Source: an uncultured Bacilli bacterium (GTDB taxonomy: Bacteria > Bacillota_I > Bacilli_A > RF39 > UBA660). Taken from it: a stretch of 64,000 nucleotides of DNA. The position numbers and the translations under genes were made by a program. The DNA lies in NCBI GenBank assembly GCA_934087065.1, contig CAKOIS010000002.1, positions 11,880 to 75,879 of the forward strand. The letters run 5' to 3'. Shown in pieces: positions 4,811-63,297 of the stretch (positions are counted from its first letter, which is position 1; each line of letters begins with the position of its first letter). The notes under the pieces are model-generated. The model was not told the origin of the DNA and did not search any database. It saw only the letters and a list, made by a program, of their open reading frames with translations.

Positions 4811-4815
4811 AGTAT

Positions 4816-7308
4816 ATGAAGAATAAAAAAGGAATGATATATGGAGTACTATTAATGACTTGTTTAGTAATAGGTTTATCTTATGGAGCATTTATATTTA
4901 GTACAGATAAATATAGAAGTAGTGAATTATTAATAAGTAAGTTAAACTATAGTATAGATATACAAGAAGACGGAAGTAATAAGTCTACAATTAATGGAAG
5001 TTCAGTAACAGTACCAGCTAGTACTAAAGTATATTTAAATATTACTTTAACAAGTGTAAATGAAATAGATAGTAAATATACTTTAGCATATAAAACTAGC
5101 ACAAACGCTAAAGTAGAGTACTCAGATAGAACACCATGGAACACACAAGGAGTAATAAAAGGAATAGACAGTAACACTTATTCAAAAAAGATAAGAGTAG
5201 TAATAGATAACACAAATATCTCAACACCATCTACAGTAAACTTTCAAGTATATGGTGGATACTCATTTAACTCATATGCAAATATAGAACTAACTGATGG
5301 ATATGTATCAGTAAGTGGACCATACACAGAAGTTGCAACAAACATAGGAAATAGACTAGTAGATATAATAGAAAGTGATACAAGTTGTTTAACAAGTAAT
5401 TCTAACACTTGCTTGTATGGTGGAGAGAACATTAAAAACTATGTACAATACCCAGAAGACAATGACAAAACAAAGAACTTATGGAGAATAATAGGAAGTT
5501 ATCAAATAGAAGATCAAACACTACCAAAACTAATAAGTCAAAGTACAAGTAGTACTAGTACTTCAACACTAACAACAGACTTAACAAGTTTCTATAACAC
5601 ATTAGAAGATAAAGAAGTATTAGTACAACAAACAAATAAATTTAATTGTTTTACTAATACTTGTGTAGAAAGCACTTACAACAATATTGGCTTACTAACA
5701 GACTATGAATATAATCAAATAGGTGGAGTAAACTCATACTTAGCAACTACAGAAAAATATTACATAAATAGTTCTAGCGGAATAAAAGAAGTAACATCAA
5801 GTGGGATAACAAACCCAAGTAATACAAGTGGACTAAAACCAACAATATACTTACAAACTGGAGTACAAGTAACAGGAAGTGGAACAGTGAGTGACCCATA
5901 CATCATAAGTCCAGCAAGTGATATAAATTTAGTTGCTTATACATTAAATGGACAAGCAACAGATAAAAATTATGCAGATTTACTTAAAACAAATGTAGTA
6001 GATAAAGTAACATGTAAAAACGGAACAACAGCAACATGGGACAATACAGATTTTTCAATAAAATTAAAGAATATACATACACCAGACTATTGTACAATTG
6101 ATTTTGGAGATGGATACAGTGTTAGTTTAACAGCAACAAATGGTACAGTAAGTCCATCAAATATAACTGTAGGATATAATGGAAGTGCAAGTTTTACTGT
6201 AACACCTAACAGTGGATATAAACTAGAACTTGAAACAAACACATGTGGCGGAACACTATCAGGAAGTACATATACAATAAGTAATGTAACAAGTGCAAAA
6301 AGTTGTAGTATAACATTCAAGTCTTCTACACAAACATTATATGCTAAACTGCTTGCTGATAAATCAACAGTATTAACAAGAACAGACTTTAGTAAAGTTT
6401 TAACAAATGACAATACAAACACATTATATACAGGAACAGAGAATGGAACAACAGTATATTATTTTGCAGGGAATGCAACAGATAATTGGGTAAAGTTTGG
6501 AAAGAATGCAACTAATCAAGACTTATACTGGAGAATAATAAGAACAAACTCAGATGGTGGAGTAAGACTACTATACCATGGAACAAGTACTACAGCAACA
6601 GATGCGGTTATAAACACAAGTACAGCATTTAATACAACATATAATAACCCAATGTATGTAGGATATATGTATGGAACAAGCGGTTCATTAGTAAATAATA
6701 GAACAAATACAAATAATAGTACAATAAAAGGAATAATAGATACATGGTATGAAAATAATCTAAAAACTAACTATACAAAATACTTAAGTACAACAGCAGT
6801 ATATTGCAATGATAGAAGTAACCCAGCAGGTGGATATAACACTGGAGGTACAACATTCTACTATGGTGGATATACACGATTAATAACAAATAAAACACCA
6901 ACATATGACTGTACAGACACTAACGATAAATTCACAGTAGACACAAGTACAGGAAACGGGAAACTAACATACCCAATAGCATTAATGACAGCAGACGAAG
7001 TAAGTTTTGCAGGTGGACTAGCGGGAACAAACGCACCAACATGGTATTATTATAATAGTGCAAAGGGTAGCTCAACAGGTGACACCAGGTGGTGGCTGTT
7101 GTCTCCTTACTATTGGAGTAGCGGCCACGCTTACGTGTTTCGCGTGTACGGTTCGTCCTACCCTGGCCGCTTGAACTACAACAACGTCAACTACACCGCT
7201 CTTGGTGTTCGTCCGGCAGTTTCTCTCAAATCTTGTATCAAGACAAGTGGAGGAGATGGCTCGGCAAACGCACCATACACAATAGAAGAAAGTACAAGTG
7301 GGTGCTAA
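4816..7308 (+). CDS. secreted/surface protein, paralog 1 (830 aa). N-terminal signal anchor and S/T-rich linker. The C-terminal half is homologous to paralogs 2-4 and ends in an adenine-depleted hypervariable domain (WWLLSP...GVRPAVSLKSC)
   Basis: RBS gaggagg. The C-terminal ~330 aa align with ORFs 23406, 34050 and 45303. Terminal CLec/DUF1566-like pattern (YW..S...AY.V.F.V.G....GVRP). Confidence 0.8.
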   Translation: MKNKKGMIYGVLLMTCLVIGLSYGAFIFSTDKYRSSELLISKLNYSIDIQEDGSNKSTINGSSVTVPASTKVYLNITLTSVNEIDSKYTLAYKTSTNAKVEYSDRTPWNTQGVIKGIDSNTYSKKIRVVIDNTNISTPSTVNFQVYGGYSFNSYANIELTDGYVSVSGPYTEVATNIGNRLVDIIESDTSCLTSNSNTCLYGGENIKNYVQYPEDNDKTKNLWRIIGSYQIEDQTLPKLISQSTSSTSTSTLTTDLTSFYNTLEDKEVLVQQTNKFNCFTNTCVESTYNNIGLLTDYEYNQIGGVNSYLATTEKYYINSSSGIKEVTSSGITNPSNTSGLKPTIYLQTGVQVTGSGTVSDPYIISPASDINLVAYTLNGQATDKNYADLLKTNVVDKVTCKNGTTATWDNTDFSIKLKNIHTPDYCTIDFGDGYSVSLTATNGTVSPSNITVGYNGSASFTVTPNSGYKLELETNTCGGTLSGSTYTISNVTSAKSCSITFKSSTQTLYAKLLADKSTVLTRTDFSKVLTNDNTNTLYTGTENGTTVYYFAGNATDNWVKFGKNATNQDLYWRIIRTNSDGGVRLLYHGTSTTATDAVINTSTAFNTTYNNPMYVGYMYGTSGSLVNNRTNTNNSTIKGIIDTWYENNLKTNYTKYLSTTAVYCNDRSNPAGGYNTGGTTFYYGGYTRLITNKTPTYDCTDTNDKFTVDTSTGNGKLTYPIALMTADEVSFAGGLAGTNAPTWYYYNSAKGSSTGDTRWWLLSPYYWSSGHAYVFRVYGSSYPGRLNYNNVNYTALGVRPAVSLKSCIKTSGGDGSANAPYTIEESTSGC
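7090..7227 (+). other. putative DGR variable region (VR) of paralog 1
   Basis: A-depleted, GC-rich stretch in an AT-rich gene. The codons that vary against paralogs 2-4 are NNC (tac, cac, cgc, aac, acc). Conserved scaffold codons lack A. A conserved 3' boundary (gtttctctcaaatcttgtgtcaagacaag) contains a small inverted repeat. Confidence 0.55.
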
Positions 7309-7492: not shown

Positions 7493-8845
7493 CTAAAACT
7501 CTACTGTTTCTACATTGCTTTGTATTTGATTATTTATTTGTTGTACTTGCTGTGTTACTTGTGGAGTAGGTTGCTGCTGTGGTGTTTCTTTTATACTGTG
7601 GGCTTTTTGTGCCATCTTTAGGTTTGCAACTAAGTTATCGTCTTTGTAAGCTGTCATATCATTTTCTAAGTCAACTATCTTTAGTATTTCTTCAAATGAT
7701 GTTTCTCCTTCAACAACTTTGTTTAACCCATCTTGTAATAGTGTAACAACTTCTCCAGTATAAACTAAATCTCTTAGAACGTGTTTAGGAGCATTATTAG
7801 TAATTGCGTCTTTTATTTTTTCATTCATTACTAGTACTTCTAGTATTGCAAGTCTTCCTCTATAACCATGGTTACATCTAGGACAGCCTTCTTTATTTGC
7901 AACATACATTTCATTTATATCTTTTCCTATAACTGTTTTAAATACTTGTTTTTCATATTCTGTAGTTTGTCTTTTAATCATACAGTTAGGACATAATTTT
8001 CTAGCAAGTCTTTGACTTATTATTCCTTCAAGTGAGCTACCAAGTAAGTATCTTTCTACATCCATATCAGTAAGTCTTTCAATAGTATTAAGTGAGTTAT
8101 TAGTGTGTAGTGTACTAAGAACTAAGTGTCCAGTAATTGAAGCACGTACGGCAATTCTAGCTGTTTCATCATCACGAATTTCTCCGATCATTATTATATT
8201 AGGGTCTTGTCTTAAAATACTTCTTAAAATAGTAGCAAATGTAAGACCAATTTCAGTTTGAGTTTGAACTTGGTTAATACCAGCAATATCCATTTCAACT
8301 GGGTCTTCAACTGTTATGATGTTAACTTCTTCAGTATTAAGCTTTTGAAGAATAGAGTACAAAGTAGTACTTTTACCAGTTCCAGTAGCACCAGTAACTA
8401 AGATAATTCCATTAGGTATTCTAATTAATTTATTAATCTTTTCCATCGCGTCTTTACTAAAGCCTAAGTTATCAAGTCCAGCTAAACTCATAGAGTAGTC
8501 TAGAATTCTTATAACTATTTTTTCTGCATTATTTGTAGGTAGTGTACTTACACGCAAATCAAGTAGTCTATCTCCAATTTTACTCTTAATCGCACCATCT
8601 TGAGGAAGACGCGTTTCCATTATATTCATACCGGCTATCATTTTGATACGACTTATCATATTTCTTTTATATTTACTAGGGACTATACTGTAATCACTTA
8701 ATATACCATCAATTCTAAAACGAATTTTCAAAGAGTCTTTAGATGGGTCAAAGTGAATATCACTTGCGCCCTTATTAACTGCGTCTATTATAATTTCATT
8801 TGCTATTTCAACAATAGGTAATTTTTCAAAATTAAATTCTTTCAT
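7493..8845 (-). CDS. pilB: type IV pilus assembly ATPase (PilB/GspE family)
   Basis: Walker A GATGTGKSTT. GspE-type Asp/His boxes. Tetracysteine C-x-x-C...C-x-x-C motif. 450 aa. Confidence 0.85.
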   Translation of the reverse strand: MKEFNFEKLPIVEIANEIIIDAVNKGASDIHFDPSKDSLKIRFRIDGILSDYSIVPSKYKRNMISRIKMIAGMNIMETRLPQDGAIKSKIGDRLLDLRVSTLPTNNAEKIVIRILDYSMSLAGLDNLGFSKDAMEKINKLIRIPNGIILVTGATGTGKSTTLYSILQKLNTEEVNIITVEDPVEMDIAGINQVQTQTEIGLTFATILRSILRQDPNIIMIGEIRDDETARIAVRASITGHLVLSTLHTNNSLNTIERLTDMDVERYLLGSSLEGIISQRLARKLCPNCMIKRQTTEYEKQVFKTVIGKDINEMYVANKEGCPRCNHGYRGRLAILEVLVMNEKIKDAITNNAPKHVLRDLVYTGEVVTLLQDGLNKVVEGETSFEEILKIVDLENDMTAYKDDNLVANLKMAQKAHSIKETPQQQPTPQVTQQVQQINNQIQSNVETVEF

Positions 8846-9091: not shown

Positions 9092-9454
9092 ATGAAAAAT
9101 AAAGGTTTTACTTTAGTTGAAGTAATTGCAGTTATTGCTTTAATTGCAGCTTTGGTTTTACTAGTAGTCCCAAAACTAGCAGACATGGATACGAAAAGCA
9201 AAGAAAAGATGTATAATGCAAAAGTGACGGAAATTTTATCAGGTGCTTATAAGTATGGAACAGATAATATTGATAACTTAACAAATGAATGCTTAGATGT
9301 AACAGTTGGTACTTTACTAAAACTAGGATATGTTAAATCAGATGATAATTCTGGTTTCTATGTGACTAATCCTAAAAATAATGAGTCAATGAATAACTTA
9401 ATTATATGTGTTAAATATGAAAATGGGAAAGTAGTAACTAATGTTAGTAATTGA
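9092..9454 (+). CDS. type IV prepilin-like protein (class III signal, KGFTLVEV)
   Basis: N-terminus MKNKGFTLVEVIAVIALIA has a G-F-T-L-x-E prepilin peptidase site followed by a hydrophobic helix. 120 aa. Confidence 0.75.
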   Translation: MKNKGFTLVEVIAVIALIAALVLLVVPKLADMDTKSKEKMYNAKVTEILSGAYKYGTDNIDNLTNECLDVTVGTLLKLGYVKSDDNSGFYVTNPKNNESMNNLIICVKYENGKVVTNVSN

Positions 9455-19696: not shown

Positions 19697-20194
19697 ATGA
19701 AAAAGAAAGGATTTACACTAATTGAGGTTATTGCAGTAATTGCGCTTGTATCACTTTTACTACTTTTGGTAGTGCCAAATATAACTGAAAGTTATAAGAA
19801 AAGTCAAAAGAAAATATTCTATGATAACGTACTAGGTATATATAACACTGCTACACAGTCATTCTTATTAGAAGATACTAAAGTTAATAACTTTTGTCAT
19901 TCTGGTACTAAATTAAAAGCTGACTTAGGAGAAGATGTAGAATATAATGTTATATTAGACGACTTTGGGCAAGTTACTAGTTTAGCTGTAAGTAATGGAA
20001 GATTTTACTATTCTAAATCTAATTCAAGTGGAGTAAGTAGGTCAGACATTTCTATAGACGACATCCAAGAAAGCAAAATTAATATTAATTGTGACGGGAC
20101 AATAAGTTATCAAAATAACTGTATAATAACTGATTCAAATAGGTCTTGTCAAATATACGGTTTCACATTTTTTAGAAAAAATGCTACGATTTAG
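19697..20194 (+). CDS. type IV prepilin-like protein
   Basis: N-terminus MKKKGFTLIEVIAVIALVSLLLL with G-F-T-L-I-E. 165 aa. Cys pair near the C-terminus. Confidence 0.7.
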   Translation: MKKKGFTLIEVIAVIALVSLLLLLVVPNITESYKKSQKKIFYDNVLGIYNTATQSFLLEDTKVNNFCHSGTKLKADLGEDVEYNVILDDFGQVTSLAVSNGRFYYSKSNSSGVSRSDISIDDIQESKININCDGTISYQNNCIITDSNRSCQIYGFTFFRKNATI

Positions 20195-23209: not shown

Positions 23210-23405
23210 AAAATGATAAGATTATCTTGTAATAAAGATAGGAAGTGAAGCACATGGAAGTTAATTCTTTAGTACAAAACAAAGTACAAATTGGGGGGGG
23301 GTTATTTAAATAGTATAAATAACTATAGTTTTTCATGTGCAATTATATGGATAGAATAAGTCTACCCATTTTTTCGTGTCTTAAAAAGAAAGGAGTGCAT
23401 TAAAT
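23205..23405 (+). promoter_or_regulatory. conserved leader, copy 2: palindrome gataagattatc, uORF from ATG 23255, G10 tract 23293-23302, hairpin plus T-run about 23346-23372
   Basis: Homologous to the leaders at 4360, 33855 and 45105. Confidence 0.6.
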
Positions 23406-24905
23406 ATGCAAAGGAAACAATTAACACTTGTAATAGTAAGCTTACTAGTAGTAGTACTAAGTGTATCACTTGCTTACTTTACAGCACAAATAATAGGAAA
23501 GGGAAAAGATGTAAGTGTAACAAGCGCAAACCTACAAATAGTATTTACAGATAGTGATGGAGCTTTAACAGAAACTGATATAGAACCTGGCTGGACTAAA
23601 ACTAAAACATTTACTATTAAAAATGATACTAAGATAGAATACAAATATAATATAGTAATAAAAGACTTATTAAATACTTTTGTAACTAATGGATACTTAA
23701 AGTACAAGATAACTAGTACAAATAATGGATATAATATGACTGAGTTTAAAGATATTCCAAAGTCTAGTGCACCTAAAGATACAATATTAGCTTATAGTGT
23801 AGTAATACCTAATGGAGTAACACAAAGTTATACAATTGAATTTAAGTATGCAAACGATGAAAGTGTAGACCAAAGTGATGATATGGGTAAGAAACTAAGT
23901 GGAACACTATTTATAACTGAGGAAACAGAAGATCCAAACAAAACACTATATAATCAATTACTTGTAGACAAATCAAAAGTATTAACAAGAACAGACTTTA
24001 GTAAAGTTTTAATAGATAATAATACAAACACATTATATACTTCTACTGAAGATAGTAAAACAGTATATTATTTTGCAGGGAATGCAACAGATAACTGGGT
24101 AAAGTTTGGAAAGAATGCAAGTAATCAAGACTTGTACTGGAGAATAATAAGAACAAACTCAGATGGTAGTGTAAGACTTCTTTACCACGGAACAAGTACT
24201 ACAGCAACAGATGCATATATTGGTGAATCAGCATTTAATAATAGTAGTTATACTAATATAGCATATGTAAGTTATATGTACGGAAGTACAGGAAGTATAG
24301 CAAATGCTAGAACTAACCAAAAAAACTCTAGTACAATAAAAGACAAAATAGATAACTGGTATAAAATCAACTTAGAAGCAAAAGGTTATACAAAATACTT
24401 AAGTACAACAGCAGTATATTGTAATGATAGAACATATGCAGTATCTGGAGATACATACTTTGGAGCATACACAAGACTAATAACAAATAAAACACCAAGT
24501 TATGACTGTGCAACAACAGAAGACAAATTCACAGTAGACACAAGTACAGGTAACGGAAAACTAACATATCCAATAGCATTAATGACAGCAGACGAAGTAA
24601 GTTTTGCAGGTGGACGATATGGTACAAATGCACCAACATGGTATTATTATAATAGTGCAAATGGTAGTTCTACAGAATCAAATGCTTGGTGGTTGTTGTC
24701 TTCTCGCAATTGGAATGGCGGCGACGCTATTGTGTTCTTCGTGTATGGTTCGTCCGAACAACCTGGCAATTTGAGCAACAGTAGGGTTGACGGCACTTAC
24801 GGTGTGCGTCCAGCCTTATCACTAAAATCTTGTGTAAAATATGCAAGTGGAGATGGCTCAGCAAGTGACCCATACACAATAAAAGAAACTACAAATGGAT
24901 GCTAA
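23406..24905 (+). CDS. secreted/surface protein, paralog 2 (499 aa) with C-terminal A-depleted hypervariable domain
   Basis: N-terminal signal anchor MQRKQLTLVIVSLLVVVLSVSLA. First ~170 aa nearly identical to paralogs 3 and 4. C-terminus WWLLSS...GVRPALSLKSC. Confidence 0.85.
   Translation: MQRKQLTLVIVSLLVVVLSVSLAYFTAQIIGKGKDVSVTSANLQIVFTDSDGALTETDIEPGWTKTKTFTIKNDTKIEYKYNIVIKDLLNTFVTNGYLKYKITSTNNGYNMTEFKDIPKSSAPKDTILAYSVVIPNGVTQSYTIEFKYANDESVDQSDDMGKKLSGTLFITEETEDPNKTLYNQLLVDKSKVLTRTDFSKVLIDNNTNTLYTSTEDSKTVYYFAGNATDNWVKFGKNASNQDLYWRIIRTNSDGSVRLLYHGTSTTATDAYIGESAFNNSSYTNIAYVSYMYGSTGSIANARTNQKNSSTIKDKIDNWYKINLEAKGYTKYLSTTAVYCNDRTYAVSGDTYFGAYTRLITNKTPSYDCATTEDKFTVDTSTGNGKLTYPIALMTADEVSFAGGRYGTNAPTWYYYNSANGSSTESNAWWLLSSRNWNGGDAIVFFVYGSSEQPGNLSNSRVDGTYGVRPALSLKSCVKYASGDGSASDPYTIKETTNGC
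24687..24824 (+). other. putative DGR variable region (VR) of paralog 2
   Basis: A-depleted. Variable NNC/NNT codons (cgc, aat, ggc, gac, att, ttc, agc, aac, agt, gac, ggc, act, tac). One extra codon relative to copies 1 and 3. Confidence 0.5.
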
Positions 24906-31217: not shown

Positions 31218-33011
31218 ATGAAAAAGAATAAAAAGAACGTTCATAAAGTTTCATTATTTACTAATTTGTCCTATGTTCTTAAACAAATGGCAACTGAATT
31301 ATATAAAACAGCTAAGTTTGCTGGGTTAGGCTTATTTAAAGTTTTTGATTTTATAATGACTAACTTAATTACAATAGTAACATATATTTTCTATGCGATA
31401 TATTATATTAGTATGTATATTGGAAAATTTACTTATACTTTAGGTAAATTCATGTATTATAAAGTGTTTAAACCTATTGGTTTTGAAGTATATTATTTAT
31501 TTAAAGCAATGTACTTGGGTGCTTACAGGGTAGGTAAAATATTATTTTATGAAATTCCTTTATTTATATTTAACTCATTTAGTGACTTTTTTGACTTGAT
31601 AAGAAAAAAATTAAAACTATTAAAAGAAAGACTAATGTATTTCTTTAAACATACACCTAATACAGTTAAAAATTACTTCTTAGATAGATTTAACAATATT
31701 AGTATAGTAAAACACTATAGGAATAAGAAAGAAAGAGAATTAGAAGTTCTATTAATAGATAAGTTTGGTAAAGATGCTGAAAGGACCAGCAAAAAACAGA
31801 CTTATAAATACTTAGTAAGAAATGAAGAAGGTAAACTAATTACTGGATATTTTGCAGCTTTATCTAGGTTAGATGTGCATTCATACTTACTTGATGAAGG
31901 ATATGAAGTATACGAGATTAAAACAAACTGGTGGATAAATTTTGCACATGGAGAAAGTAAGTACTTAGAAAAGCAAATGAAAGCAAAAGACTTAATTTTC
32001 TGGTTAGCCCAGTTAAGTACTTATTTAAAAGCAGGAATACCACTTACTGATTCAGTTAAAATACTTGCTGAACAAGATAAAAGAAAAAAATATAAAAAGA
32101 TATATGACTCAGTTATATATGAGTTATCTATGGGTGAAGCATTTAGTGATGCTTTAAGAAAACAAGGAAGTGTGTTTCCACCTTTACTAATTAATATGAT
32201 TAAAGGTGCAGAACTAATAGGAGACTTAGAAAACACACTTGACGATATGAGTAAATACTATGAAGAAAGAGAATCAACTAGAAAACAATTAATAGGTTCA
32301 CTTGTATACCCAGCTGTAATACTAGTGTTCTCATTAGTTGTAGTAATATTTATGGTAGTATATATAATACCTCAATTTGAAGGAATATACTCAAGCTTAG
32401 GTGCAGAGTTAAACCCAATAGTATTATTCTTACTTAAATTTAGTGCATTCTTAAAAACTAATTATATGTTACTAATTGCAGGATTTATATTAGTAGTAGT
32501 ACTATTAACATTTATGTATAAAAAAGTTAAAGCTTTTAGAACACTAGTACAATATATAGCAATGCATCTACCATTAGTAGGGAAACTAATTATATATAAT
32601 GAAATGCACTTATTTGCAAAAACATTTAGTGTACTTAATAAAAATAATGTACTTTTAACTGATAGTATAGATATACTTAGTAAAATAACTAGTAATGAAT
32701 TTTATAAAATGATAATGTATGACACAATTAGTAACTTATTAAGAGGAGACAAAATAAGTTTATCATTTAAAGACAACTGGGCTGTTCCAACACTAGCTTA
32801 TTACATGATATCAACTGGTGAAGCAACAGGTGAATTAAGTGAAATGTTAGAAAAAGTAAGCGTTTATTATGAACAAGAACAAAGAAACTTGGGTAACTCA
32901 TTAAAAACGCTAATTGAACCAATACTTATGATTATATTAGCTGTTATAGTTGGTGGAATAATGATTTCTATAATCGTGCCAATGTATGATATAACAAAGA
33001 ACATCTTGTAG
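31218..33011 (+). CDS. pilC: type IV pilus inner-membrane platform protein (PilC/GspF family) with a ~190-aa N-terminal extension
   Basis: Two GspF-type domains. The canonical PilC N-terminus (TYKYLVRNEEGKLITGYFAALS) begins around aa 196. Strong RBS agaggtgaagg at 31218. Confidence 0.8.
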   Translation: MKKNKKNVHKVSLFTNLSYVLKQMATELYKTAKFAGLGLFKVFDFIMTNLITIVTYIFYAIYYISMYIGKFTYTLGKFMYYKVFKPIGFEVYYLFKAMYLGAYRVGKILFYEIPLFIFNSFSDFFDLIRKKLKLLKERLMYFFKHTPNTVKNYFLDRFNNISIVKHYRNKKERELEVLLIDKFGKDAERTSKKQTYKYLVRNEEGKLITGYFAALSRLDVHSYLLDEGYEVYEIKTNWWINFAHGESKYLEKQMKAKDLIFWLAQLSTYLKAGIPLTDSVKILAEQDKRKKYKKIYDSVIYELSMGEAFSDALRKQGSVFPPLLINMIKGAELIGDLENTLDDMSKYYEERESTRKQLIGSLVYPAVILVFSLVVVIFMVVYIIPQFEGIYSSLGAELNPIVLFLLKFSAFLKTNYMLLIAGFILVVVLLTFMYKKVKAFRTLVQYIAMHLPLVGKLIIYNEMHLFAKTFSVLNKNNVLLTDSIDILSKITSNEFYKMIMYDTISNLLRGDKISLSFKDNWAVPTLAYYMISTGEATGELSEMLEKVSVYYEQEQRNLGNSLKTLIEPILMIILAVIVGGIMISIIVPMYDITKNIL

Positions 33012-33022
33012 GGGGAAACAAA

Positions 33023-33760
33023 ATGATTTACGTATTTATATTTATAACTGGTGTATGCCTAGGAAGTTTTTATGCTTGTATAGGCTACAGAATTCCAAAC
33101 AAAATTAGTACAGTAAAACCTAGTAGTTTTTGTCCAAACTGTAAAAAAAGTTTAAAGTGGTATATGAATATACCACTTCTAAGCTATATATTTTTAAAAG
33201 GAAAATGCGCTTACTGTAAAGAAAAGATAAGTATAACTTACTTTCTAATAGAACTAACTACAGGAATACTTTTCTTAATAAGCTACATGATATTTGGATT
33301 AAACTATCAATTAATAGTAGTATTAACTCTAATAAGTGCCTTAATGGTTAGTTTAGTAACAGACTTAAAATATTACTACATTTCAGATAGAGTAATAGTA
33401 GTTTCTTCTATTTTAGTAGCGTTTACTTACTTAAAATTCTTAGGAGTTAACTCATTTTTAAGCCATATACTATCAGGCGCTTTGATGTTTATATTAATGT
33501 ATTTACTAAAAATAATAACTACAAAAATATTTAAAAAAGAGTCACTAGGTGACGGGGACATCAAACTAATGATACTTATTGGTTTAACACTAGGAGTGTT
33601 TAACTCGTTTATTTCTTTATTTATATCAAGCGTAACAGCGCTTATATATACAATACTATTTATAAAGAAGAAAGATGCACTTATCCCATTTGGACCTTTC
33701 CTTTTAATAGGTGCGATAGTTACATACATTCTAGTTTTTTATCAAATAACTATAATATAG
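33023..33760 (+). CDS. pilD: prepilin peptidase (A24 family)
   Basis: N-terminal CPNC...CAYC zinc-binding module. Catalytic-region motif GDGDIKLM. Polytopic membrane protein. Confidence 0.85.
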   Translation: MIYVFIFITGVCLGSFYACIGYRIPNKISTVKPSSFCPNCKKSLKWYMNIPLLSYIFLKGKCAYCKEKISITYFLIELTTGILFLISYMIFGLNYQLIVVLTLISALMVSLVTDLKYYYISDRVIVVSSILVAFTYLKFLGVNSFLSHILSGALMFILMYLLKIITTKIFKKESLGDGDIKLMILIGLTLGVFNSFISLFISSVTALIYTILFIKKKDALIPFGPFLLIGAIVTYILVFYQITII

Positions 33761-33854: not shown

Positions 33855-34049
33855 TTTTTTGATAAGATTATCTTGTAATAAAGATAGGAAGTGAAGTACA
33901 TGAAAATTAACTCTTTAGTACAAAATAAAGTACAAAATGGGGGGGGGTTATTTAACTAGCATAAATAACTATAGTTTTTCATGTGCAATTAAATGGATAG
34001 AATAAGTCTATCCATTTTTCGTGTCTTAAAAAGAAAGGAGAGCATTAAT
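33855..34049 (+). promoter_or_regulatory. conserved leader, copy 3: palindrome gataagattatc, uORF from ATG 33900, G9 tract 33939-33947, perfect 11-bp hairpin plus T-run about 33991-34026
   Basis: Homologous to the other three leaders. The hairpin aaatggataga-ataag-tctatccattt is followed by tttcgtg. Confidence 0.6.
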
Positions 34050-35531
34050 ATGCAACGAAAACAATTAACACTTGTAATAGTAAGCTTACTTGTAGTAGTA
34101 CTAAGTGTATCACTAGCTTACTTTACAGCACAAATAATAGGAAAGGGGAAAACTGTAGACGTTAGTAGTGCTAACTTACAAATAGTATTTACAGATAGTG
34201 ATGGAGCTTTAACAGAAACTGATATAGAACCAGGCTGGAGTGCAACTAAAACATTTACTATTAAAAATGATACTAAGACAGAATACAAATATAATATAGT
34301 AATAAAAGACTTATTAAATACTTTTGTAACAGAAGGATATTTACAATACAAAATAACTAGTACAAACGATGGATATAATATGACTGAGTTTAAAGATATT
34401 CCAAAGTCTAGTATAGCAACAGATACAATACTAGCTTATAGTGTAGTAATACCTAATGGAGTAACACAAAGTTACACAATTGAATTTAAGTATGCAAACG
34501 ATGAAAGTGTAGACCAAAGTGATGATATGGGTAAGAAACTAAGTGGAACATTATTTATAACTGAAGGAACAGAAGATCCAAATAAAACACTATATAATCA
34601 ATTACTTGTAGACAAATCAACAGTATTAACAAGAACAGACTTTAGTAAAGTTTTAACAGATAATAATACAAACACATTATATACTTCTACTGAAGACAGT
34701 AAAACAGTATATTATTTTGCAGGGAATGCAACAGATAACTGGGTAAAGTTTGGAAAGAATGAAAGTAATCAAGATTTATACTGGAGAATAATAAGAACAA
34801 ACTCAGATGGTGGAGTAAGACTACTATATCATGGCACAAGTACTACAGCAACAGACGCATATATAGGAATATCAAAATTTAATACAGAATATAATGATCC
34901 AATGTATGTAGGATATATGTATGGAACAAGCGGATCACTAGTAAACAACAGAACAAATATAAGTGATAGTACAATAAAAACAACACTAGATAATTGGTAT
35001 AAAGATAATTTGAATACAAATTATGGAAAATACTTAAGTACAACAGCAGTATATTGTAACGATAGAAGTACATCAAATGATACATCCTTTGGAGCATTCA
35101 CAAGACTAAAAACAAATAAAACACCAAGTTATGACTGTGCAGCAACAGAAGACAAATTCACAGTAGATAATAGTACAGGCAACGGTAAACTAACATACCC
35201 AATAGCCTTAATGACAGCAGACGAAGTAAGTTTTGCAGGTGGACTATGGGCAACAAATGCTTCTACTTGGTATTATTATAATAGTGCAAACGGAAGCTCA
35301 ACAGGCTCAAACTGGTGGTGGTTGTTGTCTCCTCGCCTTTGGATTGGCGGCTACGCTAGCGTGTTCAACGTGAACGGTTCGTCCGGCCCTGGCCGCTTGT
35401 ACTTCGACGACGTCAACAACTCTTACGGTGTGCGTCCGTCAGTTTCTCTCAAATCTTGTGTCAAGACAAGTGGTGGAGATGGCTCAGCAAGCACACCATA
35501 CACAATAGAAGAAACTTCAAGTGGATGCTAA
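34050..35531 (+). CDS. secreted/surface protein, paralog 3 (493 aa; start moved from 33993 to the conserved MQRKQ ATG)
   Basis: RBS aaaggagag plus ATG 34050 is the position conserved in paralogs 2 and 4. C-terminus WWLLSP...GVRPSVSLKSC. Confidence 0.85.
   Translation: MQRKQLTLVIVSLLVVVLSVSLAYFTAQIIGKGKTVDVSSANLQIVFTDSDGALTETDIEPGWSATKTFTIKNDTKTEYKYNIVIKDLLNTFVTEGYLQYKITSTNDGYNMTEFKDIPKSSIATDTILAYSVVIPNGVTQSYTIEFKYANDESVDQSDDMGKKLSGTLFITEGTEDPNKTLYNQLLVDKSTVLTRTDFSKVLTDNNTNTLYTSTEDSKTVYYFAGNATDNWVKFGKNESNQDLYWRIIRTNSDGGVRLLYHGTSTTATDAYIGISKFNTEYNDPMYVGYMYGTSGSLVNNRTNISDSTIKTTLDNWYKDNLNTNYGKYLSTTAVYCNDRSTSNDTSFGAFTRLKTNKTPSYDCAATEDKFTVDNSTGNGKLTYPIALMTADEVSFAGGLWATNASTWYYYNSANGSSTGSNWWWLLSPRLWIGGYASVFNVNGSSGPGRLYFDDVNNSYGVRPSVSLKSCVKTSGGDGSASTPYTIEETSSGC
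35313..35450 (+). other. putative DGR variable region (VR) of paralog 3
   Basis: 17 A in about 138 nt within an AT-rich genome. All but one A lie in NNC codons (att, tac, agc, aac, aac, tac, gac, gac, aac, aac, tac). Scaffold codons (tgg tgg ttg ttg tct cct ... ggt tcg tcc ... cct ggc cgc ttg ... ggt gtg cgt ccg) are A-free. Confidence 0.55.
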
Positions 35532-40896: not shown

Positions 40897-41004
40897 TTAT
40901 TTGTTTCTCAAGGCGTATTCACTTGAAAAACCGCTCAGAATAGGTTGTAAAAGGTTAAACCTTACCTCAATGGCGCGTCTTATTATTTAAAGGAGGTATG
41001 AAAA

Positions 41005-41307
41005 GTGAAAGCAATTATCGTTACTGGTGGAAAACAATATTTAGTTACAGAAGGAACTGTTTTATATGTTGAAAAACTTGATAATGAAGTTAATACAGAT
41101 GTTACTTTTAATGAAGTACTTTATGTTGATGGAAAAGTTGGAACACCTACAGTTAAAGGTGCAAGTGTTACTGCAACAGTTTTAAAGCATGGTAAACAAA
41201 AGAAGATTAGAGTATTTAAATATAAAAACAAAACTAAATCTTCAAGAGTAACTAAAGGACATAGACAACCATACACTAAAATAGAAATTAAGAAAATAGT
41301 TGGTTAA
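41005..41307 (+). CDS. rplU: 50S ribosomal protein L21
   Basis: [17 protein letters not shown]... is a canonical L21 N-terminus. GTG start with a strong RBS. Confidence 0.9.
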
Positions 41308-41614
41308 TATGATTAAAGTTAATATTAAACGAAAAGAAAATATAATAAAAGAAATAAAACTAACAGGACATGCAAAGTATGACGAATACGGCAAAGACAT
41401 TGTGTGTGCAGGAGTTAGTACGTCGCTTACTGTAACTATCAATGCTTGTTTATCTTTTGATAAAGAAAGTATTACTTATAACGAGAGTGACCCATTTATA
41501 TTAACTAATGTAAATGAAAGTGAAATAACTAATAAATTATTAGAAAACTTAGTTAGAACTCTTAAAGATATAGAAAGTGACTACAAGAAAAACATTACAA
41601 TTAAGGAGGAATAA
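41300..41614 (+). CDS. prp: ribosomal-processing cysteine protease Prp (YsxB family)
   Basis: Conserved position between rplU and rpmA. GHA...CAGVS catalytic His/Cys pattern. Confidence 0.7.
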
Positions 41615-41617
41615 ATA

Positions 41618-41905
41618 GTGAAATTTTTAAAATTAGATTTACAACTATTCGCATCCCACAAAGGTGTTGGTTCAACTAAAAACGGACGTGACTCTGCTGG
41701 TAGAAGACTTGGTGCTAAAGTTGCTGATGGACAATTTTGTACTGCAGGTTCTATTATTTATAGACAAAGAGGTACTAGAATTTATCCAGGTACTAACTGT
41801 GGAATGGGTAAAGACCACACATTATTCGCACTAGTTGATGGAGTAGTTAAATACGAAAGATTAGGAAGAGATAAGAAAAAAGCAAGTGTTTATGTTGTTG
41901 AATAA
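41618..41905 (+). CDS. rpmA: 50S ribosomal protein L27 (with Prp-cleaved N-terminal extension)
   Basis: The N-terminal extension [26 protein letters not shown] is the Prp cleavage motif typical of Firmicutes L27. Confidence 0.9.
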
Positions 41906-42455: not shown

Positions 42456-42656
42456 GTGACTAGTATGACAGACAATAATAATGATAATAATAACAATTTT
42501 AATGACTTAGAATGGGTAGTTAGTGAAGAAATAAATAAATGTGATGGTTGTTCAGGAAGTTGCTTTTTAAGAGAACTTATAGAAGAACAAAGAAAAGGAC
42601 TAATTACAGAAGAAGAAATTGTAGAAAGATTAAAGGAGTACTATGGTGAAGAATGA
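42456..42656 (+). CDS. small acidic hypothetical protein (66 aa), overlapping and possibly partnered with the downstream Fic gene
   Basis: RBS aaaggaag. N/D-rich N-terminus. CDGCSGSC motif. The stop overlaps the Fic start by 14 nt. Confidence 0.35.
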   Translation: MTSMTDNNNDNNNNFNDLEWVVSEEINKCDGCSGSCFLRELIEEQRKGLITEEEIVERLKEYYGEE

Positions 42657-43293
42657 TCCGTATGTACAAAAGAATGGTGTTTTAAAAAATAAGCTAAATA
42701 TAAAGAATGAAGAAAAACTAAAACAAGCAGAAAGTGATATAGTAATAACTAGAATACATGAGTATTTTAGTAATATGTCGTTTTCAAGAACTAAAGAGTT
42801 TTATTTAGCTTTACATAAGCACTTATTTGGAGATATTTATCCTTTTGCAGGAGAAATAAGAACTATTAATATAGAAAAACAAGAAAGAGTACTTGCTTGG
42901 GATAGTGTTAAATATATTGATTGTGATAAAATAAATACTGAACTAGACGCAACATTTGAAATACTATCTCATACAGACTTTTTAAGTTTAGATATAGAAA
43001 TGCAAAAAGACTTTTTAACCTCTTTAATAAGTGACTTATGGGGAATACATGCTTTTAGAGAAGGAAATACTAGAACAGTGCTTGTTTTCTTAAGAGGATA
43101 CTTAAATAGTTATGGAATTAATTTTAATATAAATTTCTTTAAAAATAGTAATACTTATCAATATGCAAGAGATGCTTTAGTTGCTTCATACTTTGAAAGC
43201 GATATACTAGGCATTACTAGAAATTATACTTATTTAAGAAAACTTATTGGAGATATTATAGAAGAAGATTTGGAAAGGAAAAGAAATATATGA
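42643..43293 (+). CDS. Fic/Doc-family protein (216 aa)
   Basis: HAFREGNTRTVLVFL matches the Fic core HxFx(D/E)GN(G)R, with G->T at the second glycine. Size and layout are typical of small Fic proteins. Confidence 0.55.
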   Translation: MVKNDPYVQKNGVLKNKLNIKNEEKLKQAESDIVITRIHEYFSNMSFSRTKEFYLALHKHLFGDIYPFAGEIRTINIEKQERVLAWDSVKYIDCDKINTELDATFEILSHTDFLSLDIEMQKDFLTSLISDLWGIHAFREGNTRTVLVFLRGYLNSYGINFNINFFKNSNTYQYARDALVASYFESDILGITRNYTYLRKLIGDIIEEDLERKRNI

Positions 43294-44672
43294 AATTAGA
43301 TATTAAAGAATTACATGAAAAATATGAAAGTTTAATGGGAAAAGAAATAGAGTTAAATGGTTGGATAAAAAGTAATAGGGATCAATCATCTTTAGGATTT
43401 ATTGATTTAAATGATGGTACATCTTTTAAAGGAGTACAAGTGGTTTATACTCCTGAGTTAAAAGATTTTGATGATATTTGTAAATTACAAGTAGGTAGTA
43501 GTGTTAATGTTAAAGGTGTACTTGTTAAAAGTGAAGGAGCTAACCAAGAATACGAAGTAAAATTGGATGAAATTACTTTACTAGGTGGAGTTGATATAGA
43601 CTATCCATTACAAAGCAAAGGTAGGCCTACAAGAGAATTTTTAAGAGAAATTGCTTACTTAAGACCTAGAACAAACTTATTTAATGCAGTTTTTAGAGTA
43701 AGAAGTATAGCTGCGTTTGCAATACATAAATATTTTCAAGAAAGAGGATACGTTTACTTTCATGCACCACTTATAACAGCAAGTGACTGTGAAGGTGCTG
43801 GGGAAATGTTTCAAGTAACTACACTTGACTTAGACAGAGTAGCAAGTTCTGGTAAAGTAGACTACTCAAAAGACTTCTTTGGCAAGCAAGCTAATCTTAC
43901 AGTATCAGGTCAATTAGAAGCTGAAACTTTTGCAATGGCTTACAAGAAAGTTTACACTTTTGGGCCAACTTTCAGAGCAGAAAACTCAAACACTAAAACA
44001 CACGCTAATGAATTTTGGATGATAGAGCCTGAAATGGCATTCATGGACTTGCATGACGATATGGATGTGATGGAGGATATGCTAAAATACGTAGTTAAAT
44101 ACGTACTAGAAAACGCTAAAGATGAAATGGCTTTCTTTGATAAATTCGTTGAAAAAGGATTACTTGAAAAACTAAATAAATTAGTAAATAGTCATTTTAC
44201 AAGAATTACTCATGAAGAAGTAATAACTATTTTAAAACAAGCAGATGTTAAATGGGAGTTTACTCCTGAATATGGAGAAGATATAGCAAAAGAACATGAA
44301 AAATATATAACAGAATACTTTAATGGACCAGTATTTATTACTAATTGGCCTAAAGATATAAAAGCATTCTATATGAAACAAAATGATGATGGGAAAACTG
44401 TTGCAGCAGTTGATCTAGAAGTACCAGGTGCAGGAGAGTTAATGGGTGGAAGTCAAAGGGAAGAAGATTATACTAAACTACTTAACATAATGACTGAACT
44501 TGGTATGAAAGAAGAAGATATGAAGTGGTACTTAAATCTTAGAAGATTTGGTGGATGTGTTCACTCAGGATTTGGAATGGGATTTGAAAGACTACTAATA
44601 TATTTAACTGGTGTAGAAAACATTAGGGATGTTATACCATACCCTAGAACACCAGGAAACTGTGAATATTAA
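43290..44672 (+). CDS. asnS: asparagine--tRNA ligase
   Basis: Class II aaRS motifs. FRAENSNTKTHANEFWMIEPE is diagnostic of AsnRS. 460 aa. Confidence 0.9.
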   Translation: MKLDIKELHEKYESLMGKEIELNGWIKSNRDQSSLGFIDLNDGTSFKGVQVVYTPELKDFDDICKLQVGSSVNVKGVLVKSEGANQEYEVKLDEITLLGGVDIDYPLQSKGRPTREFLREIAYLRPRTNLFNAVFRVRSIAAFAIHKYFQERGYVYFHAPLITASDCEGAGEMFQVTTLDLDRVASSGKVDYSKDFFGKQANLTVSGQLEAETFAMAYKKVYTFGPTFRAENSNTKTHANEFWMIEPEMAFMDLHDDMDVMEDMLKYVVKYVLENAKDEMAFFDKFVEKGLLEKLNKLVNSHFTRITHEEVITILKQADVKWEFTPEYGEDIAKEHEKYITEYFNGPVFITNWPKDIKAFYMKQNDDGKTVAAVDLEVPGAGELMGGSQREEDYTKLLNIMTELGMKEEDMKWYLNLRRFGGCVHSGFGMGFERLLIYLTGVENIRDVIPYPRTPGNCEY

Positions 44673-45104: not shown

Positions 45105-45302
45105 TTTTTTTGATATCATTAATTATGTAATAAAGATAGGAAGTGAAGTACATGAAAATTAACTCTTTAGTACAAAATAAAGTACAATATGGGGGGGGTT
45201 ATTTAAATAGTATAAATAACTATAGTTTTTCATGTGCAATTAAATGGATAGAATAAGTCTATCCATTTTTTCGTGTCTTAAAAAGAAAGGAGAGCATTAA
45301 AT
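45105..45302 (+). promoter_or_regulatory. conserved leader, copy 4: uORF from ATG 45152, G8 tract 45191-45198, perfect hairpin plus T-run about 45239-45272
   Basis: Homologous to the other leaders. With 8 G the uORF stays in frame through the left arm of the hairpin and stops at the TAA in its loop. Confidence 0.6.
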
Positions 45303-46931
45303 ATGCAACGAAAACAATTAACACTTGTAATAGTAAGCTTACTTGTAGTAGTACTAACTGTATCACTAGCTTACTTTACCGTACAAATAATAGGAAAGGG
45401 GAAATCTGTAGACGTAACAAGTGCTAACTTACAAATAGTATTCACAGATAGTGATGGAGCTTTAACAGAAACTGATATAGAACCTGGCTGGACTAAAACT
45501 AAAACATTTACTATTAAAAATGATACTAAGATAGAATACAAATATAATATAGTAATAAAAGACTTATTAAATACTTTTGTAACTAATGGATACTTAAAGT
45601 ACAAGATAACTAGTACAAATAATGGATATAATATGACTGAGTTTAAAGATATTCCAAAGTCTAGTGCACCTAAAGATACAATATTAGCTTATAGTGTAGT
45701 AATACCTAATGGAGTAACACAAAGTTATACAATTGAATTTAAGTATGCAAACGATGAAAGTGTAGACCAAAGTGATGATATGGGTAAGAAACTAAGTGGA
45801 ACTCTTTATATAGAGAAAGGGACTTTACCAACGTTAAGTGAGAAACTTTTTGCTGATAACCCAACAATACAAACAAGAAGTTCATTTGATGCAGTATTTA
45901 CTGAAACAAACACAGGAACTTTATATAAAGCAACAGAAAGTATAGCAGGTAGTCCTGCAAAAGATGTGTATTACTTTGCAGGAGATGCAAAGAATAACTG
46001 GGTTAATTTTGGAAAATATCAAACAGATTATGTTGTCTATAGAGGTTATTCTGAAACAGGCAGTAAATACATAGATTATTTGACAATGGATGCATGTACT
46101 AGTGCCTCAAATTATAATATTAATTGTACTGAACAAATATATTGGAATAAGGGTAATGATATATACTGGAGAATAGTAAGAACAAACTACGATGGAAGTG
46201 TAAAACTTCTATATGCGGGAAATAGCCCTGATACAACAAGTGGATACATAGGAACAAGTGCATTCAATAGCACAAATAATGATTCAATGTATGTAGGATA
46301 TAAATATGGTACAAGTGGGACTCTAGCAAATAACAGATTAAATACAAATGATAGTACAATAAAAACTTTTATAGATAACTGGTATAGTAATAACTTAACA
46401 AGTTATACAAAATATATAAGTACAGAAGCAGTATATTGTAATGACAGAAAAGCACTAAGCTATAGTATAAGTAGTTCTTTTGATTACTATGTACAAACAA
46501 GACTAGGTGCAGGAAATCCAACATATGATTGTGAAGATAGTAGTGATGCATTTTCAGGAAGTAATAGTGAAGCAAAATTAACACACCCAATAGGACTAAT
46601 GACAGCAGATGAAATAACATATGCAGGTGGTAAAGATACTACAGGCTTAACAAGTCCATATGCATGGTATTATCTAAACAGTGCTGGGGAAAGTATAACC
46701 GGAACACAATGGTGGTGGTCCTTGTCACCTCGACTCTGGAATGGTGTCATTTCGTACGTTTGGTTCGTTTTTGGTTCTTCTATTCCGGGTGCCCTTTTGA
46801 GCACCGCCGATGTGAACTTTGAGAATGGTGTTCGCCCCGCCATTTCTCTCAAATCTTGTGTCAAGACAAGTGGTGGAGATGGTTCAGCTAGTAACCCATA
46901 CACAATACAAGAAACAGCAAGTGGTTGTTAA
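45303..46931 (+). CDS. secreted/surface protein, paralog 4 (542 aa), with a more divergent C-terminal half and an A-depleted hypervariable terminal domain
   Basis: The N-terminal 170 aa are nearly identical to paralogs 2 and 3. The C-terminal domain WWWSLSP...GVRPAISLKSC is related but more diverged. Confidence 0.85.
   Translation: MQRKQLTLVIVSLLVVVLTVSLAYFTVQIIGKGKSVDVTSANLQIVFTDSDGALTETDIEPGWTKTKTFTIKNDTKIEYKYNIVIKDLLNTFVTNGYLKYKITSTNNGYNMTEFKDIPKSSAPKDTILAYSVVIPNGVTQSYTIEFKYANDESVDQSDDMGKKLSGTLYIEKGTLPTLSEKLFADNPTIQTRSSFDAVFTETNTGTLYKATESIAGSPAKDVYYFAGDAKNNWVNFGKYQTDYVVYRGYSETGSKYIDYLTMDACTSASNYNINCTEQIYWNKGNDIYWRIVRTNYDGSVKLLYAGNSPDTTSGYIGTSAFNSTNNDSMYVGYKYGTSGTLANNRLNTNDSTIKTFIDNWYSNNLTSYTKYISTEAVYCNDRKALSYSISSSFDYYVQTRLGAGNPTYDCEDSSDAFSGSNSEAKLTHPIGLMTADEITYAGGKDTTGLTSPYAWYYLNSAGESITGTQWWWSLSPRLWNGVISYVWFVFGSSIPGALLSTADVNFENGVRPAISLKSCVKTSGGDGSASNPYTIQETASGC
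46710..46850 (+). other. putative DGR-type variable region (VR) of paralog 4, a divergent class
   Basis: About 12% A. The conserved 3' boundary tttctctcaaatcttgtgtcaagacaagtggtggagatgg is shared with copies 1 and 3. Confidence 0.45.
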
Positions 46932-62412: not shown

Positions 62413-62857
62413 GAATGGTTTTGTATTTATAGAAACAATAATAGTAATTGTCTTACTTAGTGTTGGTATTGCTAGTATGTACTCTTTAATGACTAATATA
62501 ACAACTGATATAAAATCAAGAAAATACTTTGATAATATAAGTGATTTATATAAAACTAATATTATAAGAGATAATGTAAGTAAAAATTTAACTGGTACAA
62601 CATACTTAGAGATTACAAAAGATAACTGTACTTCATACATGAGTAGTACATGTTATAGTTTACTTACTGACTTAGAAGTAGAAAGAGTAGTAGTTAACTT
62701 TGCAAGTTTAGATAACATAATAAATAGTGATACAACCATCCCTAACAGTATGAATGAATACCTAAAAACAATTAATACATATAAAACAAACAAATACATA
62801 ATAGTAAACTACAAATACAATAACAAAAACTATTATGCTTCCCTAGAGGTGAAATAA
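62381..62857 (+). CDS. prepilin-type pseudopilin (likely true start GTG 62405: VNKNGFVFIETIIVIVLL)
   Basis: G-F-V-F-I-E-T class III signal. RBS gagagg before the GTG. Confidence 0.6.
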   Translation: MNLMRGITVNKNGFVFIETIIVIVLLSVGIASMYSLMTNITTDIKSRKYFDNISDLYKTNIIRDNVSKNLTGTTYLEITKDNCTSYMSSTCYSLLTDLEVERVVVNFASLDNIINSDTTIPNSMNEYLKTINTYKTNKYIIVNYKYNNKNYYASLEVK

Positions 62858-63297
62858 TGAAAAAAAATGGATTTACCTTAGTTGAACTAACTATTAGTAT
62901 TGCTCTATTATCAGTAGTAATGGTCTTCTTACTAAACTTTCTAACACTTGTTAAAAAAGAAGATGTAGGAATAGAAGAAACTACAAGCATGGAAATAGAT
63001 AAAAGTGTAATTTCTAAAACTATTAATAGTGATATCTTAAAAGAAAACTATATAAGTACTCTGTCTTGTACAGATGTGTTATGTAGTGTAACCTTAAAAA
63101 GTGGGGCTAAAAGAACTATTACTATAGACGGTAATATCGTTAAATACACCGATACTACAAACAATAAAGTACTCATGTCTAGAAAGACTAACTTATCATA
63201 CACTTTAAAAAGTACTAGCTTAACCACTATTGATAAAATAACACTTGTCACAGAAAACTCAGAATACAATATAGAAATAATATCTAGTAAAATCTAG
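62857..63297 (+). CDS. prepilin-type pseudopilin
   Basis: N-terminus MKKNGFTLVELTISIALLSVV. Start overlaps the previous stop (TAATG). Confidence 0.65.
   Translation: MKKNGFTLVELTISIALLSVVMVFLLNFLTLVKKEDVGIEETTSMEIDKSVISKTINSDILKENYISTLSCTDVLCSVTLKSGAKRTITIDGNIVKYTDTTNNKVLMSRKTNLSYTLKSTSLTTIDKITLVTENSEYNIEIISSKI

Follow-up and report, generated by a model that had tools for sequence, protein, structure and literature searches.

We analysed a stretch of 64,000 nucleotides (nt) from an uncultured Bacilli bacterium (RF39, UBA660; assembly GCA_934087065.1, contig CAKOIS010000002.1, positions 11,880 to 75,879), which is referred to here as the window. Four paralogous genes, p1 to p4, are encoded in it, and this work deals with the third, p3, whose 3' end carries an adenine-poor block that resembles the variable region (VR) of a diversity-generating retroelement (DGR), the part that is homologous to a template repeat (TR). 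The genes and their blocks are the following:

34050-35531, + strand: paralog 3 (p3), proposed DGR target gene, preceded by a ribosome binding site (RBS), encoding a putative secreted or anchored protein of 493 amino acids (aa)
4816-7308, + strand: paralog 1 (p1), 830 aa
23406-24905, + strand: paralog 2 (p2) gene
45303-46931, + strand: paralog 4 (p4) gene
35319-35438, + strand: proposed VR of p3 (TGGTTG...CGTCCG), the part homologous to the TR
7093-7226, + strand: VR-like block of p1, probably a former or variant VR
24690-24814, + strand: degenerate VR-like block of p2
46716-46850, + strand: degenerate VR-like block of p4, in which A is still scarce (19 of the 147 nt at 46710-46856)

On the + strand, the p3 block at 35313-35450 contains 16 A in 138 nt by letter count. 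Sliding windows of 138 nt hold 55.6 A on average (standard deviation 8.3), and 16 is the minimum of the entire 64 kb; counts of 22 A or fewer are found only in the tails of p1, p3 and p4 and at one unrelated spot. The GC content of the block is 0.57 (0.56 in a 150-nt window at this position) compared with 0.288 for the whole window, and the equivalent blocks of p1, p2 and p4 have values of 0.53, 0.50 and 0.50. A preliminary description of this DNA had placed a GC-rich island at the same relative position in all four paralogs, which is what we find (4/4), and had counted 17 A in the p3 block; the depletion is real, but the number is 16. The scaffold motif TGGTGGTTGTTGTCTCCT, with up to three mismatches allowed, was detected once in each of the four paralogs, with a chance expectation of 0.02. 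The codons of the block had also been divided into invariant A-free codons and NNC/NNT codons in which both leading bases vary. This division holds for p1 and p3, where the two kinds alternate, but not for p2 and p4, which differ at scaffold positions as well and contain 3-nt indels.

As previously stated for this DNA, the window contains neither a TR nor a reverse transcriptase (RT). A scan that accepted a match or an A at each VR position returned only the VRs, and the ten open reading frames (ORFs) of 280-385 aa encode housekeeping proteins or a XerC/D-like integrase, none of them an RT. Among the other larger ORFs are polA, polC, dnaK/dnaJ/hrcA, lon, gyrBA, dxs, asnS, murT/gatD and components resembling those of type IV pili or type II secretion systems (T2SS). 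The C-terminal consensus of the p3 homologues reads WWLLSPxxWxxxxAxVFxVxGSSxPGxLxxxxVxxxxGVRP. A first DNA pattern, GGTTCGTCCNNCCCTGGCCGCTTG, had no match in genome or viral contigs; its fixed CGC codon proved to be variable. A pattern with N at the variable codons detected eight loci in GTDB representative genomes (Bacillota bacterium UBA11492, Clostridium sp. CAG:628 and an uncultured Eubacteriales metagenome-assembled genome (MAG)), all of which are VRs and none a TR. A TR-specific pattern, GTGTTYAAYGTGAAYGGTTCGTCCAAYCCTGGCAAY, with AAY codons inferred from the homologues and these eight VRs, was run on metagenome contigs and matched 11 contigs from the human gut. Each match is part of a TR of about 131 nt with the general form TGG(T/C)TGTTGTCTCCTAACAATTGGAATGGCAGCAACGCTAACGTGTTCAACGTGAACGGTTCGTCCAA(C/T)CCTGGCAACTTGAACAACAACAACGTCAACAACACTAACGG(T/G)GT(G/T)CG(T/C)CCG...TTTCTCT, which reads TGGTTGTTGTCTCCT-AAC-AAT-TGG-AAT-GGC-AGC-AAC-GCT-AAC-GTG-TTC-AAC-GTG-AAC-GGTTCGTCC-AAC-CCTGGC-AAC-TTG-AAC-AAC-AAC-AAC-GTC-AAC-AAC-ACT-AAC-GGTGTGCGTCCG. 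The TR sequence predicted in advance from the paralogs was nearly exact. The TR flanks are common to all 11 contigs and unrelated to the target gene, and the TR lies outside the target coding sequence. Several TR variants exist among the gut contigs.

The p3 VR was compared with the L018-type TR, which comes from the contig of a related strain and not from the source genome. Over 120 nt all 19 mismatches are located at TR adenines, none of the 86 non-A positions differs and no indel is present; since 34 of these 120 TR bases are adenines, the hypergeometric probability is P = 3e-13. When the comparison is extended to 131 nt, 20 of 21 mismatches are at A, and the lone exception matches another TR variant. 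Both values lie above the 90% that had been proposed as a test for adenine-specific transfer. For p1 the best TR gave 17 mismatches at A sites and four at non-A sites together with a 3-nt insertion (one extra codon). The corresponding numbers are 17 and 10 for p2 and 23 and 29 for p4, each again with a 3-nt insertion, and the share of mismatches at A is 63% in p2 and 44% in p4, compared with 27% of TR positions that are A. Judged from the alignments, p3 is a textbook VR, a clean A-only derivative of a TR, p1 is probably a variant or former VR, and p2 and p4 are degenerate VR descendants of which only remnants are left. The earlier proposal that all four paralogs are DGR targets thus stands for p3, but p1 fits imperfectly and p2 and p4 are degenerate with indels. 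Any TR of the source genome is predicted to match p3 exactly at the non-A positions (...AACAACAACAACGTCAACAACACTAACGGTGTGCGTCCGTCAATTTCTCT).

At the TR loci a paralogous target with its own VR is followed by the TR, a MutS-like (MSL) ORF, an ORF of 118 aa, an Avd-like ORF and the RT. The RT has 371 aa, matches RVT_1 at 1.2e-14 (in L018) and starts about 1.5 kb 3' of the TR in L018, L037 and L040. DGR RTs are characterized by an RVT_1 domain with (I/L/V)GxxxSQ (motif 4) and YxDD; the RT P0262 contains IGNYSSQ and YMDD. The MSL ORF (133-156 aa) matches Pfam MutS_I at 5.4e-6 (27 bits, cut-off 20.6) and is kept in L037-L049. The Avd-like ORF (114 aa) was matched by Pfam bAvd at 1.6e-6 (29 bits, cut-off 40) and, in L037, by NCBIfam DivGenRetAVD at 3.3e-6 (27 bits, cut-off 80). 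The RT and TR that the preliminary description had suggested searching for were thereby located in conspecific and related contigs, together with an Avd-like ORF. The neighbours of the cassette are chromosomal genes (whiA, sepF, divIVA, folD, uvrB, clpP and gap). Since viral contigs gave no match to either VR pattern, a phage-borne DGR is not supported.

Two further features of the cassette were observed. The 118-aa ORF between the MSL and Avd-like ORFs (L018 1569-1925, L037 9324-9680) is present in every cassette seen, also in L038-L049, and has no family match in Pfam or NCBIfam; it could be a further DGR accessory gene, so far undescribed. The spacer of about 200 nt between target stop codon and TR (L037 8266-8470) contains the short GC-rich inverted repeats CCGTCCGAAAACCCTTTCGGACGG, CCACCGACTGTAAGTTGGTGG, AATCACGTAAGTGATT and CTGACGCGTGAGTGTCAG. 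The repeats stand out against the AT-rich genome and might represent a terminator and a structured 5' section of the DGR RNA.

On the Hadza contig NODE_4 (701,950 bp) the encoded GyrB does not differ from that of the window, and DNA identity to the window is 98.1% over the tail of the p3 gene and gyrBA. The contig carries the P0262 RT in a locus composed of an HTH (helix-turn-helix) gene, an 824-aa target, the TR, MSL, the 118-aa ORF, avd and the RT, about 135 kb away from gyrB. Because both loci are present on this contig, the DGR belongs to the species of the source genome, and the paralog next to gyrB counts as a remote target in the sense of Wu et al. In a second sample both loci were found on separate contigs (L028 and L038), and parts of the window recur with 99.6-100% identity in contigs of several samples. 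We infer that the source strain itself carries the cassette.

In relatives the DGR is active, and the TR-adjacent VRs diversify at TR adenines. Contigs L013 and L015, which come from different samples, differ at eight positions over 2017 nt; 8/8 are in the VR and 8/8 at TR adenines. These differences cluster in the 3' half of the VR; integration of a cDNA from the 3' end with a crossover inside the VR would give such a distribution. Between L040 and L043, which encode an identical RT protein, 17 of 131 VR positions differ compared with 19 of 3428 positions outside of the VR. When TR-adjacent VRs were compared with their own TR over 131 nt, the mismatches were at A sites in 20 of 20 cases in L037 and in 18 of 19 cases in L018.

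We have little doubt that a DGR wrote the p3 block at 35319-35438, and we are equally confident that the p3 VR is the VR of a remote target gene of a chromosomal DGR. The enzymology proposed here is modelled on the paradigm of Bordetella phage BPP-1. A TR of about 131 nt would be located elsewhere in the genome, 3' of a paralogous target and 5' of the MSL ORF, the 118-aa ORF, the Avd-like ORF and the 371-aa RT. The TR would be transcribed, and the RT together with Avd would generate a cDNA from it, misincorporating opposite template adenines. This cDNA would replace the homologous VR at the 3' ends of target genes, and p3 would have been written in trans from a cassette of the same genome. Only the ligand-facing residues of the C-type-lectin-like (DUF6273-type) domain would be randomised, while the A-free scaffold codons would be copied faithfully. 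Because TR adenines are almost exclusively present in AAC and AAT codons, randomisation would be limited to those residues and would not generate stop codons. Faithful copying of an A-free scaffold combined with adenine mutagenesis would result in adenine depletion and a GC-rich island in a genome with 29% GC.

Several observations weigh against this interpretation. RT and TR have not been seen in the source genome itself, of which 64 kb are visible. The best-matching TR for p3 belongs to another strain and not to the conspecific L037, whose TR contains marker codons (ACG twice and GGC) without counterpart in p3 and gives five non-A mismatches. Three GTDB representative genomes have several VRs each and no TR match, possibly because they are incomplete MAGs. 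Both Avd matches are below the curated cut-offs; they are two independent weak matches at the expected position. Downstream of the p3 VR no canonical GC-rich hairpin with a GRNA loop is present. In addition, six other assemblies (L029-L034) carry exactly the p3 VR of the window. Several of the six are near-clonal, but gyrBA differs at 10 positions in one of them, and another contains a tract of 17 differences in the 5' part of p3. The protein P0002, which is 88% identical to p3 overall, has a practically unchanged VR. For p1, two assemblies, L020 and L021, show no difference in the VR; they differ from the window at 50 and 55 positions in the aligned 12.7 kb, clustered in the N-terminal and middle parts of p1 (43-50 differences in p1 outside the VR). 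In the Hadza strain the remote VR at the gyrB locus has nine non-A mismatches to the strain's own TR, and the adjacent VR has A-only mismatches (20/20).

One alternative assumes that p3 and p1 were once written by the DGR, are now no longer homed or only very rarely, and that the block evolves like other DNA and moves by recombination between strains and paralogs. We give this explanation a chance slightly short of even. It would agree with the identical VRs of p3 in L029-L034 and of p1 in L020 and L021 despite differences elsewhere, with the VR shared by P0002, with the contrast between the two VRs of the Hadza strain and with the clear decay of p2 and p4. Against it, p3 has no substitutions at 86 non-A positions, synonymous sites included, which argues for a recent write, and its 3' flank nearly matches the flank of the VR beside the TR in L037, which departs from its own TR at A sites only. 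Moreover, most assemblies with this VR are near-clonal, showing 0 differences across several kb, such that little time has elapsed, and minority variants are hidden in consensus assemblies. The preliminary description had implied ongoing hypervariability at this locus and proposed to look for heterogeneity confined to the variable positions of the VR; this is not supported, with the VRs unchanged in these assemblies and the differences located elsewhere in the genes. Because the p3 VR appears fixed in the sampled strains, remote homing into p3 appears to be rare or to have stopped. Since no non-A position has drifted, we read p3 as written by the DGR fairly recently.

Cassette-like gene conversion might also be the main source of VR diversity, the DGR acting at the TR-adjacent copy and the remote VRs being acquired second-hand; we consider this unlikely. 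Mosaic blocks alternate among the homologues, and the gene at the p3 locus is wholly different in L026-L028 (about 280 differences upstream of the VR) despite an identical GyrB. In addition, p1 and its upstream region (window 4430-7308) show 90% DNA identity in blastn to the TR-adjacent target region of L037 (5400-8265); the alignment stops at the p1 stop codon, and no DGR cassette follows p1. Many metagenome contigs end inside these paralog genes. These findings suggest that family members often recombine or undergo gene conversion, and we read much of the family diversity as redistributed by recombination between paralogs. However, homing into remote targets in trans is documented for other cellular DGRs (PMC5758913), the p3 VR sequence does not reproduce any of the adjacent VRs seen, and p3 keeps the 3' flank of a TR-adjacent VR. 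DGR authorship of the sequence is not disputed by this explanation. A process without any retroelement, in which paralogs diverge by diversifying selection on lectin-loop codons and by codon bias in a conserved GC-rich segment, is extremely improbable: recombination and divergence of the paralogs do occur in other parts of the gene, and enrichment of Tyr, Ser, Asn and Gly would also be expected from selection on binding loops, but a separate copy outside the coding target with A at the variable positions beside an RT and an Avd-like gene, the 19/19 mismatches at A and near-identical contigs that differ solely at TR adenines are left unexplained.

Differences between strains that are at least 99.6% identical were observed in short tracts; compared with L020, L021 and L030 these are located at 4844-5610 and 6432-6720 in p1 and at 34148-34253 in p3.

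Two features were considered at the 3' boundary of the p3 VR:

35427-35450, + strand: GC-rich 3' VR end and homology-decay boundary, similar to an initiation of mutagenic homing (IMH) site; VR GGTGTGCGTCCGTCAGTTTCTCTC, TR GGTGTGCGTCCGGCAATTTCTCTAGAG
35455-35470, + strand: small inverted repeat cttgtgtcaagacaag, the previously proposed candidate target hairpin

Homology between p3 and the TRs decays after TTTCTCT, beyond the GC-rich GGTGTGCGTCCG. The GC-rich end and the decay of homology resemble an IMH/IMH* boundary, and a function as IMH would be consistent with the sequence. Almost the same 3' flank as in p3 is found at the TR-adjacent VR of L037, which is an A-only copy of its own TR. DGR hairpins have been described as GC-rich stems of 7-10 bp with a 4-nt GRNA loop, located 4-34 bp downstream of the VR; they are nearly always present but are not part of the DGR definition (PMC3240598). 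The inverted repeat 3' of p3 has a 5-bp AT-rich stem and a 6-nt loop, and its folding energy of -3.6 kcal/mol is no better than that of shuffled sequence (z = -0.17). Other targets, including the diversifying L013 and L015, have a different sequence at this position. We do not regard 35455-35470 as an established DGR hairpin, and the suggestion that an IMH is followed by a hairpin here is not supported.

The p3 protein starts with a basic stretch and a hydrophobic helix, continues with a beta-sandwich domain and ends in a C-type-lectin-like (DUF6273-type) module of about 300 aa. A first full-length AlphaFold2 model from a shallow alignment had a pLDDT of 50, and its Foldseek matches were generic beta-sandwiches; it was discarded. 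The C-terminal 308 aa, modelled with an alignment of 50%-identity cluster representatives, reached a pLDDT of 96 and a pTM of 0.94. This model confidently places the VR at the C-terminus of the C-type-lectin-like (DUF6273-type) domain, in keeping with the CLec/DUF1566-like fold that had been guessed from the protein sequence. The best structural match is 9qa6_A, the T. ramosa IgA peptidase, and the paper on this peptidase mentions DUF6273. In Pfam scans DUF6273 (PF19789) matched p1 with 21.4 bits and p2 with 22.0 bits, under the gathering threshold of 23.5, and did not match p3 and p4; precomputed PF19789 matches are present in many homologues with 82-88% identity. A profile search of PDB sequences found nothing, and an NCBIfam scan of the targets gave no meaningful family.

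About 8000 close homologues of p3 are present in public metagenomes, typically 82-88% identical and mostly in singleton clusters. A search with the C-terminal module returned 4894 clusters at 50% identity (E <= 1e-3), with up to 11 module copies per protein. The division of codons seen in p1 and p3 is sharper in 120 homologues, in which column entropy over the whole protein peaks at residues 429-459; these are VR codons that take 9-14 residue types each, nearly all of which can be reached from AAC. Tyr, Ser, Asn and Gly are enriched at the variable sites.

Genes resembling those of type IV pili or T2SS are located among the paralogs, at 7493-8845 (- strand), 9092-9454, 19697-20194, 31218-33011, 33023-33760 and 62857-63297, and adjoin p1 and p3. 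The set comprises a T2SSE ATPase, a T2SSF platform protein, an A24 prepilin peptidase directly 5' of p3 and several N_methyl pseudopilins with KGFTL(V/I)E. The N-terminus of the paralogs was considered as a type IV prepilin signal and rejected, since it does not contain the G(-1) and E(+5) found in the pseudopilins of the window (KGFTLVE).

The only G/C homopolymers of at least 7 nt in the window are four poly-G tracts, one upstream of each paralog:

4463-4471: poly-G tract G9 in the leader ~4431-4545, upstream of p1, via an 80-aa HTH gene
23293-23301: poly-G tract G9 in the leader ~23254-23375, upstream of p2
33939-33947: poly-G tract G9 in the leader 33900-34022 (+ strand), upstream of p3
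45191-45198: poly-G tract G8 in the leader ~45152-45275, upstream of p4

An alignment of the leaders showed that each tract is located inside a short upstream ORF (uORF) with its own RBS, within a conserved leader of about 125 nt. Ahead of the main RBS the leader contains a terminator-like hairpin, TGGATAGA-ATAAG-TCTATCCA followed by T5-6, which starts at 33994 in the p3 leader. The RNA fold of the leader has a z of -4.9. Rfam contains no convincing family for it; the sole relaxed match over the leader is RsaOG with E = 0.74. The length of the tract varies among near-identical strains (G9 in L020 and G10 in L021; G10 in L026 and G9 in L027) and reaches G12 in L017. It shifts the stop codon of the uORF, which is located about 35 nt 5' of the hairpin in the short form and inside the hairpin in the long form; in the source strain the long form is seen upstream of p1 and p4 and the short form upstream of p2 and p3. 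We conjecture that the poly-G tract acts as a slipped-strand switch for phase variation or attenuation of each paralog, with homopolymer assembly errors as a possible source of the length differences. Tentatively, and with more doubt than conviction, the paralogs could be regarded as a contingency-locus family with several layers, in which DGR rewriting, recombination between paralogs and an on/off switch in the leader by slipped-strand changes and translation-coupled attenuation are combined. A connection of such a family to the neighbouring type IV pilus/T2SS-like genes is more doubtful still.

Two further features of the window are located between p3 and p4. A ribosomal protein L21 leader (RF00559) was detected at 40919-40990 (+ strand) with 37.9 bits (gathering score 36), the only match of the Rfam scan at gathering threshold; it precedes small ribosomal-protein ORFs at 41005-41905. 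A gene for a Fic/DOC-family protein (42643-43293, + strand, 6.6e-8) overlaps by 4 nt with the downstream gene for a class II aminoacyl-tRNA synthetase (43290-44672).

The reading of p3 as a remote DGR target adds a clear example of a DGR with remote targets in a cellular host, an uncultured and AT-rich Bacillota lineage of the human gut for which related strains have contigs of up to about 1.2 Mb. In large surveys of metagenomes the VR is required to adjoin the RT, and remote targets are for that reason missed (PMC8144416). The very large family is well suited to ask how often a DGR acts in trans compared with the adjacent target, and what combined effect DGR rewriting, paralog recombination and possible phase variation have on one adhesin family. 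For annotation, the finding accounts for the GC-rich, A-poor islands and for assembly breaks in these genes. The 118-aa ORF of the cassette and the difference between active adjacent and static remote VRs are details of moderate interest.

Every element of the system has a precedent, and the mechanism is not new: cassettes with MSL and Avd have been described for DGRs before, as have remote targets at distances of more than 100 kb (PMC5758913). By its gene content the cassette resembles the MSL DGRs of 'Architecture D' of Wu et al. 2017, which include the Legionella DGR and likewise combine a small MutS-like ORF, Avd (here an Avd-like ORF) and a DGR RT with the TR upstream. The cassette described here differs in the additional conserved 118-aa ORF between MSL and Avd and in its host, an uncultured AT-rich gut Bacillota lineage. 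With Bordetella phage BPP-1 and its target Mtd the system shares the adenine-specific transfer from TR to VR, the AAC-rich TR, the GC-rich 3' end of the VR, and Avd (here an Avd-like ORF) together with an RT with the (I/L/V)GxxxSQ motif. In contrast to BPP-1, an 8-bp GC-rich hairpin with a GRNA loop does not follow the p3 VR, the order is target-TR-MSL-ORF-avd-RT instead of target-avd-TR-RT, and the host is cellular with several paralogous targets. A VR in the C-terminal part of a DUF6273/C-type-lectin-like domain is also known from DGR targets of gut phages, the tentaclins and those of Faecalibacterium prophages (PMC10743442, PMC11792537), but here cassette and targets are located among housekeeping genes (gyrBA, the dnaK operon, polC, folD, uvrB and sepF) and not in a prophage. 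The TvpA DGR of Treponema denticola (PDB 2Y3C) is likewise cellular with several remote paralogous targets. It has an HRDC architecture instead of MSL and the Avd-like ORF and a target of the FGE-sulfatase type instead of the DUF6273 type, and in contrast to Treponema, the remote copies described here look static, with two of the four degenerate.

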